Below, piece by piece: positions 2,624-50,401 of a DNA stretch of 64,000 bases. The position numbers and the translations under genes were made by a program. The stretch is from Escherichia coli (GTDB taxonomy: Bacteria; Pseudomonadota; Gammaproteobacteria; Enterobacterales; Enterobacteriaceae). The notes beneath the pieces are model-generated. The model saw only the letters and a list, made by a program, of their open reading frames with translations, searched no databases and was not told the origin of the DNA. The stretch is taken from the NCBI RefSeq assembly GCF_048403405.1, contig NZ_CP183129.1; one strand, written 5' to 3'. Numbering within the stretch: position 1 is the stretch's first letter; every line of letters begins with the position of its first letter.

Positions 2624-2659
2624 CAATAAAAAAGGCCCCCCGATTTGGGAGGCCTTATT
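2624..2659 (-). promoter_or_regulatory. pheA attenuator terminator hairpin (AGGCCTCCC...GGGGGGCCT followed by U-run) between pheL and pheA
   Basis: GC-rich inverted repeat with T-run on the minus strand, placed between leader peptide ORF and pheA start. Confidence 0.7.
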
Positions 2660-2702
2660 GTTCGTCTTCGCATTCTGTTTCACACGACGAAACGCCTCCC
2701 AT

Positions 2703-2750
2703 TCAGGGGAAGGTAAAAAAGAATGCGAAGAAAAACGGTGTGTGTTTCAT
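2703..2750 (-). CDS. pheL: pheA leader peptide, 15 aa, [15 protein letters not shown] (7 Phe codons)
   Basis: Minus-strand ATGAAACACACACCGTTTTTCTTCGCATTCTTTTTTACCTTCCCCTGA read directly; too short for the ORF track. Confidence 0.85.
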   Translation of the reverse strand: [15 protein letters not shown]

Positions 2751-2804
2751 GTTTGTTTCCTTAAGTGACTTCAGTACAGTACCCGTACTGTTTTCACGCT
2801 GTCA

Positions 2805-6046: not shown

Positions 6047-6108
6047 CCTAAAGAATCAAGACGATCCGGTACGCGTGATTTTCTTTTCACATTAATCTGG
6101 TCAATAAC

Positions 6109-6136
6109 CTTGAATAATTGAGGGATGACCTCATTT
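6109..6136 (+). promoter_or_regulatory. Candidate sigma-32 heat-shock promoter of clpB (-35 CTTGAA, -10-like GACCTCATTTA)
   Basis: Match to sigma-32 consensus CTTGAAA / CCCCATnT upstream of clpB; clpB is a known heat-shock gene. Confidence 0.5.
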
Positions 6137-6175
6137 AATCTCCAGTAGCAACTTTGATCCGTTATGGGAGGAGTT

Positions 6176-8749
6176 ATGCGTCTGGATCGTCTTACTAATA
6201 AATTCCAGCTTGCTCTTGCCGATGCCCAATCACTTGCACTCGGGCACGACAACCAATTCATCGAACCACTTCATTTAATGAGCGCCCTGCTGAATCAGGA
6301 AGGGGGTTCGGTTAGTCCTTTATTAACATCCGCTGGCATTAATGCTGGCCAGTTGCGCACAGATATCAATCAGGCATTAAATCGTTTACCGCAGGTTGAA
6401 GGTACTGGTGGTGATGTCCAGCCATCACAGGATCTGGTGCGCGTTCTTAATCTTTGCGACAAGCTGGCGCAAAAACGTGGTGATAACTTTATCTCGTCAG
6501 AACTGTTCGTTCTGGCGGCACTTGAGTCTCGCGGCACGCTGGCCGACATCCTGAAAGCAGCAGGGGCGACCACCGCCAACATTACTCAAGCGATTGAACA
6601 AATGCGTGGAGGTGAAAGCGTGAACGATCAAGGTGCTGAAGACCAACGTCAGGCTTTGAAAAAATATACCATCGACCTTACCGAACGAGCCGAACAAGGC
6701 AAACTTGATCCGGTGATTGGTCGTGATGAAGAAATTCGCCGTACCATTCAGGTACTGCAACGTCGTACTAAAAATAACCCGGTACTGATTGGTGAACCAG
6801 GCGTCGGTAAAACTGCCATCGTTGAAGGTCTGGCGCAGCGTATTATCAACGGCGAAGTGCCGGAAGGGTTGAAAGGCCGCCGCGTACTGGCGCTGGATAT
6901 GGGCGCGCTGGTGGCTGGGGCGAAATATCGCGGTGAGTTTGAAGAACGTTTAAAAGGCGTGCTTAACGATCTTGCCAAACAGGAAGGCAACGTCATCCTG
7001 TTTATCGACGAATTACATACCATGGTCGGCGCGGGTAAAGCCGATGGCGCAATGGACGCCGGAAACATGCTGAAACCGGCGCTGGCGCGTGGTGAATTGC
7101 ACTGCGTAGGTGCCACGACGCTTGACGAATATCGCCAGTACATCGAAAAAGATGCTGCGCTGGAACGTCGTTTCCAGAAAGTGTTTGTTGCCGAGCCTTC
7201 TGTTGAAGACACCATTGCTATTCTGCGTGGCTTAAAAGAACGTTACGAACTGCACCACCATGTGCAAATTACTGACCCGGCAATTGTTGCAGCGGCGACG
7301 TTGTCTCATCGCTACATTGCTGACCGTCAGCTGCCGGATAAAGCCATCGACCTGATCGATGAAGCAGCATCCAGCATTCGTATGCAGATTGACTCAAAAC
7401 CAGAAGAACTCGACCGACTCGATCGTCGTATCATCCAGCTCAAACTGGAACAACAGGCGTTAATGAAAGAGTCTGATGAAGCCAGTAAAAAACGCCTGGA
7501 TATGCTCAACGAAGAACTGAGCGACAAAGAACGTCAGTACTCCGAGTTAGAAGAAGAGTGGAAAGCAGAGAAAGCATCGCTTTCTGGTACACAGACCATT
7601 AAAGCGGAACTGGAACAGGCGAAAATCGCTATTGAACAGGCTCGCCGTGTGGGTGACCTGGCGCGGATGTCTGAACTGCAATACGGCAAAATCCCGGAAC
7701 TGGAAAAGCAACTGGAAGCCGCAACGCAGCTCGAAGGCAAAACTATGCGTCTGTTGCGTAATAAAGTGACCGACGCCGAAATTGCTGAAGTGCTGGCGCG
7801 TTGGACGGGGATTCCGGTTTCTCGCATGATGGAAAGCGAGCGCGAAAAACTGCTGCGTATGGAGCAAGAGCTGCACCATCGCGTTATTGGTCAGAACGAA
7901 GCGGTTGATGCGGTATCTAACGCTATTCGTCGTAGCCGTGCGGGGCTGGCGGATCCAAATCGCCCGATTGGTTCATTCCTGTTCCTCGGCCCAACGGGTG
8001 TGGGGAAAACTGAGCTTTGTAAGGCGCTGGCGAACTTTATGTTTGATAGCGACGAGGCGATGGTCCGTATCGATATGTCCGAGTTTATGGAGAAACATTC
8101 GGTGTCTCGTCTGGTTGGTGCGCCTCCGGGATATGTTGGTTATGAAGAAGGTGGCTACCTGACCGAAGCTGTGCGTCGTCGTCCGTATTCCGTTATCCTG
8201 CTGGATGAAGTGGAAAAAGCGCATCCGGATGTCTTCAACATTCTGTTGCAGGTACTGGATGATGGGCGTCTGACTGACGGGCAGGGGAGAACGGTCGACT
8301 TCCGTAATACGGTTGTCATTATGACCTCTAACCTCGGTTCCGATTTGATTCAGGAACGCTTCGGTGAACTGGATTATGCGCACATGAAAGAGCTGGTGCT
8401 CGGTGTGGTAAGCCATAACTTCCGTCCGGAATTCATTAACCGTATTGATGAAGTGGTGGTCTTCCATCCGCTGGGTGAACAGCACATTGCCTCGATTGCG
8501 CAGATTCAGTTGAAACGTCTGTACAAACGTCTGGAAGAACGTGGTTATGAAATCCACATTTCTGACGAGGCGCTGAAACTGCTGAGCGAGAACGGTTACG
8601 ATCCGGTCTATGGCGCACGTCCTCTGAAACGTGCAATTCAGCAGCAGATTGAAAACCCGCTGGCACAGCAAATACTGTCTGGTGAATTGGTTCCGGGTAA
8701 AGTGATTCGCCTGGAAGTTAATGAAGACCGGATTGTCGCCGTCCAGTAA
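6176..8749 (+). CDS. clpB: Disaggregase chaperone ClpB (Hsp100, two AAA+ modules), 857 aa
   Basis: ORF track 6164..8749; start moved to ATG 6176 ([10 protein letters not shown]) with GGGAGGAG SD upstream; two Walker A motifs GEPGVGKT and GPTGVGKT. Confidence 0.95.
6606..6622 (+). other. Internal translation start inside clpB (SD-like GGAGGTGA then GTG codon 149) producing N-terminally truncated ClpB
   Basis: In-frame GTG at 6620..6622 preceded by GGAGGTGA; internal start at Val149 is established for E. coli ClpB. Confidence 0.6.
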
Positions 8750-8757
8750 ATGATAAA

Positions 8758-8784
8758 ACGAGCCCTTCGGGGCTCGTTTTTGTC
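8758..8784 (+). terminator. Intrinsic terminator after clpB (AACGAGCCC-TTCG-GGGCTCGTT plus TTTTTG)
   Basis: Inverted repeat with T-run 9 bp after clpB stop. Confidence 0.7.
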
Positions 8785-8864
8785 TATAAGTTAGACGGAA
8801 AAGACTATATTTAAGATGTTTTGCCTGAAAAATGAGCGAACGATAAAGTTTTTATATTTTTCGC

Positions 8865-8892
8865 TTGTCAGGCCGGAATAACTCCCTATAAT
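8865..8892 (+). promoter_or_regulatory. rRNA operon promoter P1 (-35 TTGTCA, 16-bp spacer, -10 TATAAT) with A/T-rich UP-like region upstream
   Basis: Hexamers read directly; architecture typical of rrn P1. Confidence 0.7.
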
Positions 8893-8983: not shown

Positions 8984-9011
8984 TTGACTCTGTAGCGGGA
9001 AAGCGTATTAT
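8984..9011 (+). promoter_or_regulatory. rRNA operon promoter P2 (-35 TTGACT, -10 TATTAT)
   Basis: Hexamers read directly about 120 bp downstream of P1. Confidence 0.65.
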
Positions 9012-9192: not shown

Positions 9193-10734
<1,542 letters not shown>

Positions 10735-10819
10735 CCTTAAAGAACTGTGCTTTGCAGTGCTCACACAGATTGTCTGATAGAAAGTGAAAAGCAAGGCGTC
10801 TTGCGAAGCAGACTGATAC

Positions 10820-10895
10820 GTCCCCTTCGTCTAGAGGCCCAGGACACCGCCCTTTCACGGCGGTAACAGGGGTTCGAATCCCCTAGGGGACGCCA
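10820..10895 (+). tRNA. gltW: tRNA-Glu (spacer tRNA, 76 nt with encoded CCA)
   Basis: GTCCCCTTCGTCTAGAGGCCCAGGACACCGCCCTTTCACGGCGGTAACAGGGGTTCGAATCCCCTAGGGGACGCCA read directly. Confidence 0.95.
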
Positions 10896-11088
10896 CTTGC
10901 TGGTTTGTGAGTGAAAGTCGCCGACCTTAATATCTCAAAACTCATCTTCGGGTGATGTTTGAGATATTTGCTCTTTAAAAATCTGGATCAAGCTGAAAAT
11001 TGAAACACTGAACAACGAAAGTTGTTCGTGAGTCTCTCAAATTTTCGCAACACGATGATGGATCGAAAGAAACATCTTCGGGTTGTGA

Positions 11089-13992
<2,904 letters not shown>

Positions 13993-14085
13993 ACAACGCC
14001 GAAGATGTTTTGGCGGATTGAGAGAAGATTTTCAGCCTGATACAGATTAAATCAGAACGCAGAAGCGGTCTGATGAAACAGAATT

Positions 14086-14205
14086 TGCCTGGCGGCCTTA
14101 GCGCGGTGGTCCCACCTGATCCCATGCCGAACTCAGAAGTGAAACGCCGTAGCGCCGATGGTAGTGTGGGGTCTCCCCATGCGAGAGTAGGGAACTGCCA
14201 GGCAT
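14086..14205 (+). rRNA. rrfG: 5S ribosomal RNA (120 nt)
   Basis: TGCCTGGCGGCC...CTGCCAGGCAT read directly. Confidence 0.96.
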
Positions 14206-32803: not shown

Positions 32804-33759
32804 TGAAGCAACTTTGGTTTGCCATGTCATTAGTGACAGGTAGCCTGTTATTCTCTGCTAACGCCTCGGCCACTCCCGCGTCCGGGGCGTTATTACAGCA
32901 GATGAACCTGGCCAGTCAGTCACTGAATTACGAGCTGTCATTCATCAGCATCAATAAACAGGGTGTTGAGTCTCTGCGTTATCGACATGCACGCCTCGAT
33001 AACCGTCCTCTTGCACAATTGTTGCAAATGGATGGCCCGCGCCGGGAAGTGGTACAGCGCGGCAATGAAATCAGCTATTTTGAACCGGGACTTGAACCGT
33101 TCACGCTTAATGGCGATTACATTGTTGATTCTCTACCATCGCTCATCTATACCGATTTCAAACGCCTTTCTCCTTACTACGACTTTATCTCCGTCGGGCG
33201 CACGCGTATTGCTGATCGTCTTTGCGAAGTCATTCGTGTGGTTGCCCGAGATGGTACACGCTACAGCTACATCGTGTGGATGGACACCGAATCGAAATTA
33301 CCGATGCGGGTTGATCTCCTTGATCGCGATGGTGAAACGCTGGAACAATTTCGCGTGATTGCTTTTAATGTCAATCAGGATATCAGCAGCAGTATGCAGA
33401 CGTTGGCGAAGGCAAATTTGCCGCCGTTGCTTTCTGTTCCTGTAGGTGAAAAAGCTAAATTCAGCTGGACGCCAACCTGGTTGCCACAGGGTTTTAGCGA
33501 AGTTTCCAGTAGTCGACGTCCGCTACCGACGATGGACAACATGCCTATCGAATCACGTCTCTATTCCGACGGATTATTCAGCTTTTCGGTAAACGTTAAC
33601 CGCGCTACGCCATCGAGCACCGATCAGATGTTGCGCACCGGACGCAGAACCGTCAGTACAAGCGTACGTGATAACGCCGAAATCACCATTGTCGGTGAAC
33701 TGCCGCCGCAAACGGCGAAACGCATTGCCGAGAATATTAAGTTCGGGGCAGCGCAATGA
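32803..33759 (+). CDS. rseB: Sigma-E regulatory protein RseB (periplasmic), 318 aa
   Basis: ORF 32803..33759; signal peptide; start overlaps rseA stop (TAATG). Confidence 0.93.
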   Translation: MKQLWFAMSLVTGSLLFSANASATPASGALLQQMNLASQSLNYELSFISINKQGVESLRYRHARLDNRPLAQLLQMDGPRREVVQRGNEISYFEPGLEPFTLNGDYIVDSLPSLIYTDFKRLSPYYDFISVGRTRIADRLCEVIRVVARDGTRYSYIVWMDTESKLPMRVDLLDRDGETLEQFRVIAFNVNQDISSSMQTLAKANLPPLLSVPVGEKAKFSWTPTWLPQGFSEVSSSRRPLPTMDNMPIESRLYSDGLFSFSVNVNRATPSSTDQMLRTGRRTVSTSVRDNAEITIVGELPPQTAKRIAENIKFGAAQ

Positions 33760-34235
33760 TCAAAGAGTGGGCTACCGTCATCTCCTGGGAAAACGGGCAG
33801 GCGCTGGTTAGTTGTGATGTTAAAGCCTCATGCAGCAGCTGCGCTTCACGCGCCGGTTGCGGTAGCCGCGTGTTGAATAAACTTGGCCCGCAAACCACGC
33901 ATACCATTGTCGTACCCTGTGATGAGCCGTTAGTGCCGGGGCAAAAAGTAGAATTAGGAATCGCCGAAGGCAGCCTGCTTAGCTCCGCATTACTGGTTTA
34001 TATGTCGCCGTTGATGGGACTATTCCTCATCGCTTCACTATTTCAGCTACTCTTTGCTTCAGATATTGCAGCATTATGCGGTGCGATTCTCGGTGGCGTT
34101 GGTGGATTCCTGATTGCACGTGGCTGCTCTCGAAAGTTTGCTGCCCGGTCTGAATGGCAACCGATCATCTTAAGCGTGGCCTTGCCGCCTGGCCTTGTGC
34201 GATTTGAAACATCTTCGGAAGACGCGAGCCAGTGA
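33756..34235 (+). CDS. rseC: Sigma-E regulatory protein RseC, 159 aa
   Basis: ORF 33756..34235; overlaps rseB stop by 4 nt; membrane protein. Confidence 0.9.
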   Translation: MIKEWATVISWENGQALVSCDVKASCSSCASRAGCGSRVLNKLGPQTTHTIVVPCDEPLVPGQKVELGIAEGSLLSSALLVYMSPLMGLFLIASLFQLLFASDIAALCGAILGGVGGFLIARGCSRKFAARSEWQPIILSVALPPGLVRFETSSEDASQ

Positions 34236-34432
34236 TTTCACTGGCTTTGTTGCATTTTGCATAACAAATGCGAGGACGTTTCCAGATACCACAATCCATA
34301 CGGTATGAACATTTCCTCGCCTCAATGTTGTAGTGTAGAATGCGGCGTTTCTATTAATACAGACGTTAAGCTCAGAACAGCGACTTCTAAAAGCCTGGTT
34401 AACCGGGCATTAAGGCACAATAATCATACTTT

Positions 34433-36232
34433 ATGAAGAATATACGTAACTTTTCGATCATAGCTCACATTGACCACGGTAAATCGACGCTGTCTGACCG
34501 TATTATCCAGATCTGCGGTGGCCTGTCTGACCGTGAAATGGAGGCGCAGGTTCTCGATTCCATGGATCTTGAGCGTGAGCGTGGCATTACCATCAAAGCG
34601 CAAAGCGTGACGCTGGACTACAAAGCGTCTGACGGCGAAACCTATCAGCTTAACTTTATCGACACCCCGGGCCACGTTGACTTCTCTTATGAAGTTTCTC
34701 GTTCGCTGGCTGCCTGTGAAGGTGCATTGCTGGTGGTCGACGCCGGGCAGGGCGTAGAAGCGCAAACCCTGGCAAACTGCTACACCGCCATGGAAATGGA
34801 TCTCGAAGTGGTGCCGGTACTGAACAAGATTGACCTGCCGGCAGCCGATCCTGAACGCGTGGCGGAAGAAATTGAAGATATTGTCGGCATCGACGCCACC
34901 GACGCGGTGCGCTGTTCAGCGAAAACCGGCGTTGGCGTACAGGACGTTCTCGAACGTCTGGTGCGCGACATTCCGCCGCCGGAAGGCGATCCGGAAGGCC
35001 CGTTGCAGGCACTCATTATCGACTCCTGGTTCGACAACTACCTGGGCGTTGTTTCACTTATCCGTATTAAAAACGGCACCCTGCGTAAGGGCGACAAAGT
35101 GAAAGTCATGAGTACCGGGCAGACCTATAACGCCGACCGTCTGGGCATCTTCACGCCAAAACAGGTTGACCGTACTGAACTGAAATGCGGCGAAGTAGGC
35201 TGGCTGGTATGTGCGATTAAAGATATCCACGGCGCTCCAGTAGGCGATACCTTAACGCTGGCGCGTAATCCGGCAGAAAAGGCGCTGCCTGGCTTTAAGA
35301 AAGTCAAACCGCAGGTATACGCCGGTCTGTTCCCGGTAAGTTCCGACGACTATGAAGCCTTCCGTGATGCGCTGGGTAAACTCAGCCTGAACGATGCCTC
35401 ACTGTTCTATGAGCCGGAAAGCTCAAGCGCGCTGGGCTTTGGTTTCCGCTGCGGCTTCCTCGGTCTGCTGCACATGGAGATCATCCAGGAACGTCTGGAA
35501 CGTGAATACGATCTGGATCTGATTACCACTGCGCCGACCGTAGTGTATGAAGTTGAAACCACGTCAAGAGAAGTTATCTACGTCGACAGCCCATCCAAGC
35601 TGCCAGCGGTAAATAACATCTACGAACTGCGCGAGCCGATTGCAGAATGTCACATGCTGCTGCCGCAGGCATATCTCGGCAACGTTATTACGCTGTGCGT
35701 AGAAAAACGCGGCGTGCAGACCAATATGGTTTACCACGGTAATCAGGTGGCGCTGACGTACGAGATCCCGATGGCGGAAGTGGTGCTCGATTTCTTCGAT
35801 CGCCTGAAATCTACCTCGCGTGGTTATGCGTCTCTGGATTACAACTTCAAACGCTTCCAGGCGTCCGACATGGTACGTGTAGACGTATTAATCAACGGTG
35901 AACGTGTTGATGCGCTGGCGTTGATCACCCACCGTGATAATTCGCAAAACCGCGGTCGCGAGCTGGTGGAGAAGATGAAAGATCTAATCCCACGCCAGCA
36001 GTTTGATATCGCTATTCAGGCAGCGATTGGTACGCACATCATTGCGCGCTCCACCGTGAAACAGCTGCGTAAAAACGTACTGGCTAAATGTTATGGCGGC
36101 GATATCAGCCGTAAGAAAAAGCTGCTGCAGAAGCAGAAAGAAGGTAAGAAACGCATGAAGCAGATCGGTAACGTCGAGCTGCCGCAGGAAGCGTTCCTCG
36201 CCATTCTGCACGTCGGCAAAGACAACAAATAA
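34433..36232 (+). CDS. lepA: Elongation factor 4 (LepA) GTPase, 599 aa
   Basis: ORF 34433..36232; [10 protein letters not shown]1 motif and conserved C-terminus. Confidence 0.95.
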
Positions 36233-37269: not shown

Positions 37270-37367
37270 TATTTATGAGATAAATCTCCCGTGGCTAACG
37301 ACATCCCCCGTCGTTGTGTATAGAATATTCCCCCGAAGTTTAAGGTTGGCACCTCCAGGTTGCCACG

Positions 37368-37461
37368 GCACACGAAACAGCGTTGGTCCCCATATACCGG
37401 TAAACTGAAACTGCAGCGAAGCAGTTAGCAGAACCATGTATATCAGGTCTGTTTCGTGTGC
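37368..37461 (+). promoter_or_regulatory. rnc 5' leader long-range stem (GCACACGAAACAG pairs with CTGTTTCGTGTGC); candidate RNase III autoregulatory processing structure
   Basis: 13-nt perfect complementarity read directly; rnc leader cleavage by RNase III is established. Confidence 0.55.
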
Positions 37462-37464
37462 TGA

Positions 37465-39077
<1,613 letters not shown>

Positions 39078-40940: not shown

Positions 40941-40963
40941 AATAATACCGTTCTCTTTAAAAA

Positions 40964-41004
40964 GTAAAACCCCCGAACTGGTAAGGAACAGGGGGTTTAC
41001 TTTA
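40964..41004 (+). terminator. Intrinsic terminator after acpS (GTAAAACCCCC...GGGGGTTTAC plus T-rich tail)
   Basis: Inverted repeat read directly. Confidence 0.7.
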
Positions 41005-41359
41005 CAACTTTAATTTTGTGCAGCACGCACCCTCAACAAGAGCGATTATGGATCAGGGCGGTTATCTTTTACAAGCAACTTGCAATCTTTAGCATAAAAA
41101 CTCGAGCCTTTACGAAGAAAACAATATTGATGGAAAGATTAACGTGACCGCCAATTCGGAAGTACATTAAAATTGGCTTCGTTATTGGCGATTTTGCTGT
41201 GCTTTATACCATGCCACAGAATTCCCCCATTGAAACGAGTGGTGTCGTCAAAGCTCTGGTGTGGAGTGCAGCATGCACCCTCAATAACTCGCACGTTCAG
41301 TTTTGGGGAGATGTAAGGGCTAATCTGAACGGCTGCATTCCTTGTTTAAGGAAAAACGA

Positions 41360-50216: not shown

Positions 50217-50401
50217 AGTGGCTCATTCACCGACTTATGTCAGCCCCTTCGGGACGTGCTACATAAAATACGAATGACGCACAACAAGGTGCCTGCCGTC
50301 CAACTTCTGATATCAGCGTAGCTATATCAACCATCGGGCGAAACGTCGAGTTAGGCACCGCCTTATTCCATAACAAAGCCGGGTAATTCCCGGCTTTGTT
50401 G
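50217..50401 (+). ncRNA. glmY: Small regulatory RNA GlmY (controls glmS via GlmZ/RapZ)
   Basis: Begins AGTGGCTCATTCACCGACTTATGTCAGCCCCTTCGGGACG, ends at intrinsic terminator AAAGCCGGGTAATTCCCGGCTTTGTTGT; position between purL and glrK; ends approximate. Confidence 0.8.

Follow-up and report, generated by a model that had tools for sequence, protein, structure and literature searches.

The known internal GTG start of Escherichia coli clpB: Shine-Dalgarno strength and silent-site conservation among close relatives

The 64,000-nucleotide (nt) stretch of Escherichia coli chromosome analyzed here (hereafter the window) carries clpB, the gene for the ATP-dependent chaperone ClpB, and the reading frame of this gene contains a second translation start at the GTG of codon 149. 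We consider it very probable (approximately 0.96) that one clpB mRNA is translated from two in-frame starts, giving a full-length protein, ClpB95, and an N-terminally truncated protein, ClpB80. The anatomy of the site, its identity with the E. coli K-12 locus, the outlying strength of its Shine-Dalgarno (SD) sequence and its conservation at silent positions are all directly observed. Initiation at GTG149 and the properties of the two isoforms are taken from published work, and by analogy the strain represented by the window would be expected to behave as K-12 does. Nothing in the window contradicts the two-start explanation. The element is the classical ClpB80 internal start, for which both an experimental characterization and an annotation in the K-12 reference genome already exist.

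Identity with the K-12 ClpB80 site

The window is clearly derived from an E. coli chromosome. Of 5426 complete E. coli genomes, 5425 cover positions 6100 to 8800 fully at 95% identity or more, several of them at 100%, and all listed matches are annotated 'clpB: ATP-dependent chaperone ClpB'. At the protein level the window allele and K-12 clpB are identical; 33 synonymous substitutions separate them at the DNA level, and the interval from 6340 to 6697 is free of these. The 60 nt around the internal start are identical to K-12. Similarly, the 30-mer at 6598..6627 is matched at 99% or more in 5416 of the 5426 complete genomes; megablast needs an exact 28-nt word, such that each matched copy is at most one end base from identical.

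The RefSeq record for K-12 MG1655 includes two coding sequences (CDSs) for clpB (b2592), the full-length one and 'ClpB80' (YP_010051194.1, 2731600..2733729). The latter begins 444 nt after the clpB start, a distance that maps exactly onto window position 6620. The K-12 site (ClpB80 or ClpB-S, Val149 GTG) therefore has the same gene, codon and SD as the site described here, with no difference between them. An initial annotation, made from this DNA alone, had proposed an in-frame GTG at codon 149 (6620..6622) preceded by an SD-like sequence, which is correct to the base. It had further equated this codon with the internal start known for an N-terminally truncated ClpB, and the K-12 'ClpB80' CDS at the same codon, ribosome profiling with retapamulin (Ribo-RET) and Salmonella mutants all agree. 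For the internal start of E. coli clpB, Meydan et al. (10.1101/520783) cite Squires et al. (1991) as well as Park et al. (1993).

The same annotation had noted that this second product is hidden from a plain list of open reading frames (ORFs), and indeed the list for the window includes only the frame at 6164..8749. The ClpB80 CDS is still missing from the output of routine pipelines, as illustrated by the one record of the Prokaryotic Genome Annotation Pipeline (PGAP) that was inspected, that of strain TUM14771, in which full-length clpB is the only form annotated.

Anatomy of the internal start

The host gene is a clpB ortholog encoding a class 1 Hsp100 protein with an N-domain, two AAA+ modules and a middle domain, and its product has the Pfam architecture Clp_N (twice), AAA, AAA_lid_9, AAA_2 and ClpB_D2-small. 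GTG149 is in frame and has an SD at functional spacing upstream; in the domain map it falls within the linker that follows the N-domain, past the Clp_N repeats and ahead of the first AAA module. The solved N-domain chain in PDB 1KHY is 148 residues long and matches residues 1 to 148, exactly the portion that ClpB80 is without. Moreover, the calculated masses of the two products fit the names ClpB95 and ClpB80. The coordinates of these features are collected in Table 1.

Table 1. Features of the clpB locus and its internal translation start, in window coordinates
Feature	Position	Strand	Basis or remark
Putative sigma-32 heat-shock promoter: CTTGAA, 14-nt spacer, CCTCATTTA	6109..6137	+	By eye against the sigma-32 consensus
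Primary SD (GGGAGGAG) and ATG start of full-length ClpB	6166..6178	+	Sequence; duplex -10.2 kcal/mol; annotated start
Full-length ClpB (ClpB95) CDS, clpB	6176..8749	+	857 amino acids, 95.6 kDa calculated; RefSeq annotation of identical locus
N-terminal domain region, residues 1-148, ClpB95 only	6176..6619	+	Pfam Clp_N repeats; PDB 1KHY
ATG of Met143, nearby in-frame decoy, not a functional start	6602..6604	+	Upstream of the SD; relatives; Salmonella mutant
Internal SD GGAGGTGA	6608..6615	+	Inside codons Gly145-Gly146-Glu147 (GGA GGT GAA)
Internal start codon GTG, codon 149	6620..6622	+	In frame: 6620 = 6176 + 148 x 3
ClpB80 nested in-frame CDS	6620..8749	+	709 amino acids if Val149 is read as formylmethionine, 79.9 kDa calculated; matches K-12 CDS start
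16S rRNA 3' tail GATCACCTCCTTA, anti-SD partner	10722..10734	+	Rfam SSU match ends at 10734

Read from 5' to 3', the site consists of the ATG of Met143, the codons CGT GGA GGT GAA AGC, and then GTG149, with seven nt separating the GGAGG core from the start codon. The internal SD is an exact 8-nt complement of TCACCTCC in the 16S rRNA 3' tail (10724..10731), which is encoded in the same window.

We hypothesize that a single clpB heat-shock mRNA carries both in-frame starts. Its promoter would lie at 6109..6137, where a putative sigma-32 promoter can be read by eye against the consensus, in line with the promoter known for clpB. Initiation at ATG 6176 would produce full-length ClpB95, whereas independent binding of a 30S subunit at GGAGGTGA (6608..6615) would permit a start at GTG 6620, read as formylmethionine (fMet), to produce ClpB80. 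The short protein would lack the substrate-binding N-domain and would begin within the linker that precedes the first AAA+ module. In the literature, ClpB95 and ClpB80 are reported to assemble together, and the mixed hexamers to outperform either form alone in disaggregating proteins.

Three side observations concern the same stretch of DNA. The mechanical ORF list opens the clpB frame at ATG 6164 (MGGVMRLD...), four codons 5' of the annotated ATG at 6176; the SD GGGAGGAG (6166..6173) overlaps ATG 6164 and serves ATG 6176. The small RNA RyfD (Rfam RF02768, 125 bits; ryfD b4609 in K-12) matches at 6054..6196 (+), on the same strand as clpB, and its span includes the inferred sigma-32 promoter, the 5' untranslated region and ~20 nt at the beginning of the clpB CDS. 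Finally, an ORF for 87 amino acids antisense to clpB at 6497..6760 (-) overlaps the internal start region, and it appears in the mechanical list only, without support as a gene.

Strength of the internal SD compared with chance

The predicted SD:anti-SD duplex upstream of GTG149 has a free energy of -15.2 kcal/mol. This value ranks first among the 51 in-frame ATG, GTG or TTG codons of clpB, where the primary start reaches -10.2 kcal/mol. It also ranks first among 1029 such in-frame codons (NTG) in the 41 long frames of the 64-kb window, true starts included, with the next candidate at -13.3 kcal/mol. The octamer GGAGGTGA on its own is not rare, given that the window holds three matches versus 1.18 expected. 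One of these is the 16S gene itself, and another, at 38275..38282 (-), runs antisense to a coding region and has no usable spacing to any start. It is the combination of SD and in-frame start that is the outlier.

A strong SD could also arise as a by-product of the encoded peptide, and the size of this effect can be estimated by enumerating all 1152 encodings of Met-Arg-Gly-Gly-Glu-Ser and weighting them by local codon usage. The encodings that reach -15.2 kcal/mol carry approximately 3% of the weighted probability, and the expected value is -9.5 +/- 2.6 kcal/mol. Specifically, the strong SD depends on the rare glycine codon GGA, which accounts for 6 of the 103 Gly codons in clpB, rluD and yfiH combined. 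That the SD of GTG149 is the strongest in the whole 64-kb window is a quantitative point that is modestly new.

Conservation at silent sites in close relatives

Relatives of the locus were collected by scanning metagenomes for a degenerate pattern of a downstream 14-residue peptide, outside codons 143 to 149, which yielded 120 loci. Close relatives are defined here as the 57 non-redundant sequences (pairwise nt identity below 97%) that share 80% or more amino acid identity with E. coli ClpB, a range that appears to correspond roughly to Enterobacterales (Photorhabdus 85%, Shewanella 78%, Vibrio 76%).

Codon 149 is GTG in 54 of the 57 close relatives, the highest GTG fraction of any of the 43 conserved Val columns (mean 0.40, next 0.75). 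Gly145 is GGA in 36 of 56 sequences (64%), compared with a GGA share of 11% across the other conserved Gly columns (Fisher p about 1e-20), and an SD free energy of -9 kcal/mol or stronger is retained in 56 of 57, with natural SD variants that include GGGGAGGAGA and GAGGCGGTGA. Neighboring codons are synonymously scrambled, as seen for Arg144 (CGT 25, CGG 16, CGA 8, AGA 5, CGC 3). Because GTG149 and GGA145 are held while the codons around them drift, we conclude that, in the near relatives of E. coli, purifying selection acts at silent sites on both the start codon and the SD.

Three close relatives with 85-87% amino acid identity to E. coli ClpB are exceptions at codon 149, namely L002 (Photorhabdus caribbeanensis) with GTT, L120 with GTA and L129 with GTC. 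Locus L129 also lacks the SD (peptide RSGSN, free energy -2.3). If these losses of the start in Photorhabdus and L120, and of both SD and GTG in L129, are true, then they predict natural single-isoform species, and these three lineages may be examples.

Conservation of this kind also bears on whether the SD serves another purpose, for example ribosome pausing at the boundary between the N-domain and the first nucleotide-binding domain (NBD1) during co-translational folding, with initiation as a side effect. The internal SD is located exactly at this domain boundary, and no genuine start in the window has one as strong, which exceeds the apparent need of initiation. Pausing nevertheless leaves unexplained why a GTG seven nt downstream should be held in nearly all close relatives, or why both SD and GTG should be gone from L129. 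Whether SD sequences pause ribosomes in E. coli at all is a matter of dispute, which counts further against this proposal. Furthermore, cooperation between the two isoforms is experimentally supported (PMC6941012). We therefore regard pausing as the main function of this SD to be quite unlikely, and favor internal initiation.

Limits of conservation in distant ClpB proteins

Universal conservation of the ClpB internal start was also considered and was rejected on codon and SD counts from a second sample. This sample comprises 80 ClpB loci from different species of many phyla, of which 78 were usable, for a total of 79 sequences when E. coli is included. Position 149 is Val in most of these lineages and Ala in alphaproteobacteria-like sequences. 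A weak association remains: the mean SD free energy is -7.3 kcal/mol for sequences with a start-capable codon 149 versus -5.3 kcal/mol for those without (one-sided Mann-Whitney p = 0.006, with kinship ignored). The cyanobacterial locus L032 carries GTG at position 149 with an SD of -10.3. No ATG, GTG or TTG is present anywhere in positions 138 to 160 in 30 of the 79 sequences.

Several observations limit the support for the two-start explanation. A start-capable codon is found at position 149 in only 22 of the 79 diverse sequences (GTG in 21, E. coli included, and ATG in 1), and GTC is found in 26. The bin of codons 140 to 149 is not enriched for an SD followed by NTG relative to other parts of the 79 diverse genes. 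Among the 32 non-redundant sequences of the metagenome sample below 80% identity, GTG149 occurs in 13 of 30, which places it only 14th of 29 Val columns, and GGC is the predominant codon at Gly145. The signal is gone in distant ClpB sequences, and deep conservation is therefore unusable as evidence. Even within the close-relative set, the conservation counts are phylogenetically non-independent, and the metagenomic sequences carry no taxon labels. Finally, RNAplfold places the mRNA accessibility of 6608..6622 at an ordinary level, the 37th percentile, such that structure provides no extra support for initiation at this site.

GTG149 has been stated to be highly conserved (PMC6168691). The sequence comparisons qualify this statement, in that the element is not universal among ClpB genes and appears to be restricted to a clade. 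The pattern of strong silent-site selection among close relatives, together with absence or loss elsewhere, is a modestly new point. We lean slightly toward the view that the start is confined to a clade approximating Enterobacterales, where it would be held by strong synonymous selection with few losses, and that SD versions of different strength (free energies from -9 to -17) could tune the ClpB80:ClpB95 ratio by lineage.

Two further observations concern ClpB-like sequences. Seven representatives of ClpB-like clusters (P0024, P0059, P0080, P0081, P0086, P0089 and P0137), 566-753 amino acids long, begin at the junction between the N-domain and NBD1; these proteins without an N-domain could be stand-alone genes, internal-start gene calls or contig-end fragments. 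In addition, an in-frame GTG at Val744 of E. coli clpB (8405..8407, +) has an SD-like upstream sequence of -10.0 kcal/mol, and the bin of codons 740 to 749 contains an SD followed by NTG in 31 of the 79 diverse ClpB genes. Val744 was rejected as a further internal start: it looks like a by-product of a conserved peptide, without evidence of initiation, and the accessible text of the Ribo-RET account (10.1101/520783) does not mention a second internal site in clpB.

Experimental evidence and alternative origins of the short form

Published experiments provide the evidence for initiation at this codon. According to Meydan et al. (10.1101/520783), clpB, infB and mrcB are the three E. coli genes with previously characterized internal starts, and specific Ribo-RET peaks are described at these sites, for clpB in strains BW25113 and BL21. 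Similarly, HiBiT-tagged ClpB of Salmonella Typhimurium gives two bands of 96.7 and 81.0 kDa (PMC11005335). Mutation of the Salmonella GTG at nt 445 (Val149) to CTT leaves full-length ClpB alone, and mutation of Met143 preserves both forms (PMC11005335). The ratio of the two forms shifts under conditions that induce Salmonella pathogenicity island 2 (SPI-2), in agreement with the heat-dependent E. coli ratio of Chow and Baneyx 2005 (PMC11005335). Hetero-oligomers of ClpB95 and ClpB80 have higher reactivation activity (Nagy et al. 2010, as cited in PMC6941012).

The Salmonella mutants also decide between GTG149 and a start six codons upstream, at the ATG of Met143. The latter has some appeal, given that ATG is the better start codon and that automated calling of translation initiation sites on Salmonella Ribo-RET data chose Met143 (PMC11005335). 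However, the strong SD sits on the 3' side of Met143, and the sequence ahead of codon 143 forms a weak duplex, outside the top 15 in-frame candidates. Codon 143 is also poorly conserved, with ATG in 32 of the 57 close relatives and mostly Leu codons that are unable to start in the rest. Met143 can be ruled out on the combination of these counts with the Salmonella mutants, which leaves it a negligible chance as the start of the short form.

A different origin for the 80-kDa form would be a transcript from an internal promoter, or proteolytic removal of the N-domain. Weak internal transcription starts are reported 20-96 nt upstream of the putative internal start of Leptospira clpB (PMC6941012), and the linker after the N-domain would be a plausible protease site. 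Proteolysis, however, would not predict that start-codon mutagenesis abolishes the short form, as it does in Salmonella. Likewise, initiating ribosomes arrested by retapamulin are described at the internal site (10.1101/520783), and silent-site selection for GTG and SD is predicted by an initiation site, not by a cleavage site. A consensus scan limited to sigma-70-type promoters gave no match on the + strand between 6176 and 6620, and an internal transcript would still require the same SD and GTG. Both routes seem highly improbable compared with internal initiation at GTG149.

A role for this region as an RNA thermometer was rejected as well. In the minimum free energy fold of 6560..6680, the SD is paired with CCACCGCC (6571..6578), which lies upstream of it, but there is no signal that sets this fold apart: it is no better than shuffled sequences (z = -0.86, 42/200). 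Accessibility of 6608..6622 as predicted by RNAplfold is ordinary at 30-45 C, and the ratio of internal to primary accessibility does not rise with temperature. The pairing segment encodes Thr-Thr-Ala and is not conserved in Photorhabdus.

Related systems and significance

A close likeness outside E. coli is the ClpB-L/ClpB-S pair of Salmonella Typhimurium (PMC11005335), which uses the orthologous GTG at codon 149 (nt 445), has been validated by GTG-to-CTT mutagenesis with HiBiT blotting and has a growth-condition-dependent isoform ratio. It belongs to a different species, and the likeness is known at the level of the codon. Forms of ~80 kDa from an internal start near the N-domain/NBD1 junction are also described for ClpB of Mycobacterium tuberculosis, Synechococcus and Leptospira (PMC6168691, PMC6941012). 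Their start-codon context and SD strength differ from those of E. coli, with an ATG and AGGGAA reported for Leptospira. Within E. coli, infB (IF2-alpha and IF2-beta) and mrcB (PBP1b) likewise produce two proteins from one mRNA and one frame by way of two starts, with Ribo-RET peaks (10.1101/520783). These genes and their functions are unrelated to clpB, where shortening removes a whole folded domain.

ClpB80 has been known from E. coli for decades, and its presence in the window is not new biology. The element matters as a case in which one bacterial reading frame yields two functional proteins, whose mixed hexamers reportedly disaggregate better and thereby improve survival of heat stress. 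The synonymous-site signature formed by GTG149 and GGA145 could serve as a simple comparative screen for further in-frame starts nested within genes.

Other features of the window

A complete rRNA operon (16S, tRNA-Glu, 23S and 5S) at 9193..14203 (+) is located directly downstream of clpB, as is rrnG in K-12. Two strong sigma-70-like promoters are present at 8865..8892 and 8984..9011, and an Rfam match to StyR-44 falls in the operon spacer at 10973..11081. Other RNA elements in the window that reach the Rfam gathering score are the Phe leader, the AsrC antisense RNA, the rncO leader, the ohsC antitoxin small RNA and GlmY, with coordinates, in the order listed, of 2626..2751 (-), 33720..34551 (-), 37335..37549 (+), 40961..41037 (-) and 50217..50364 (+).

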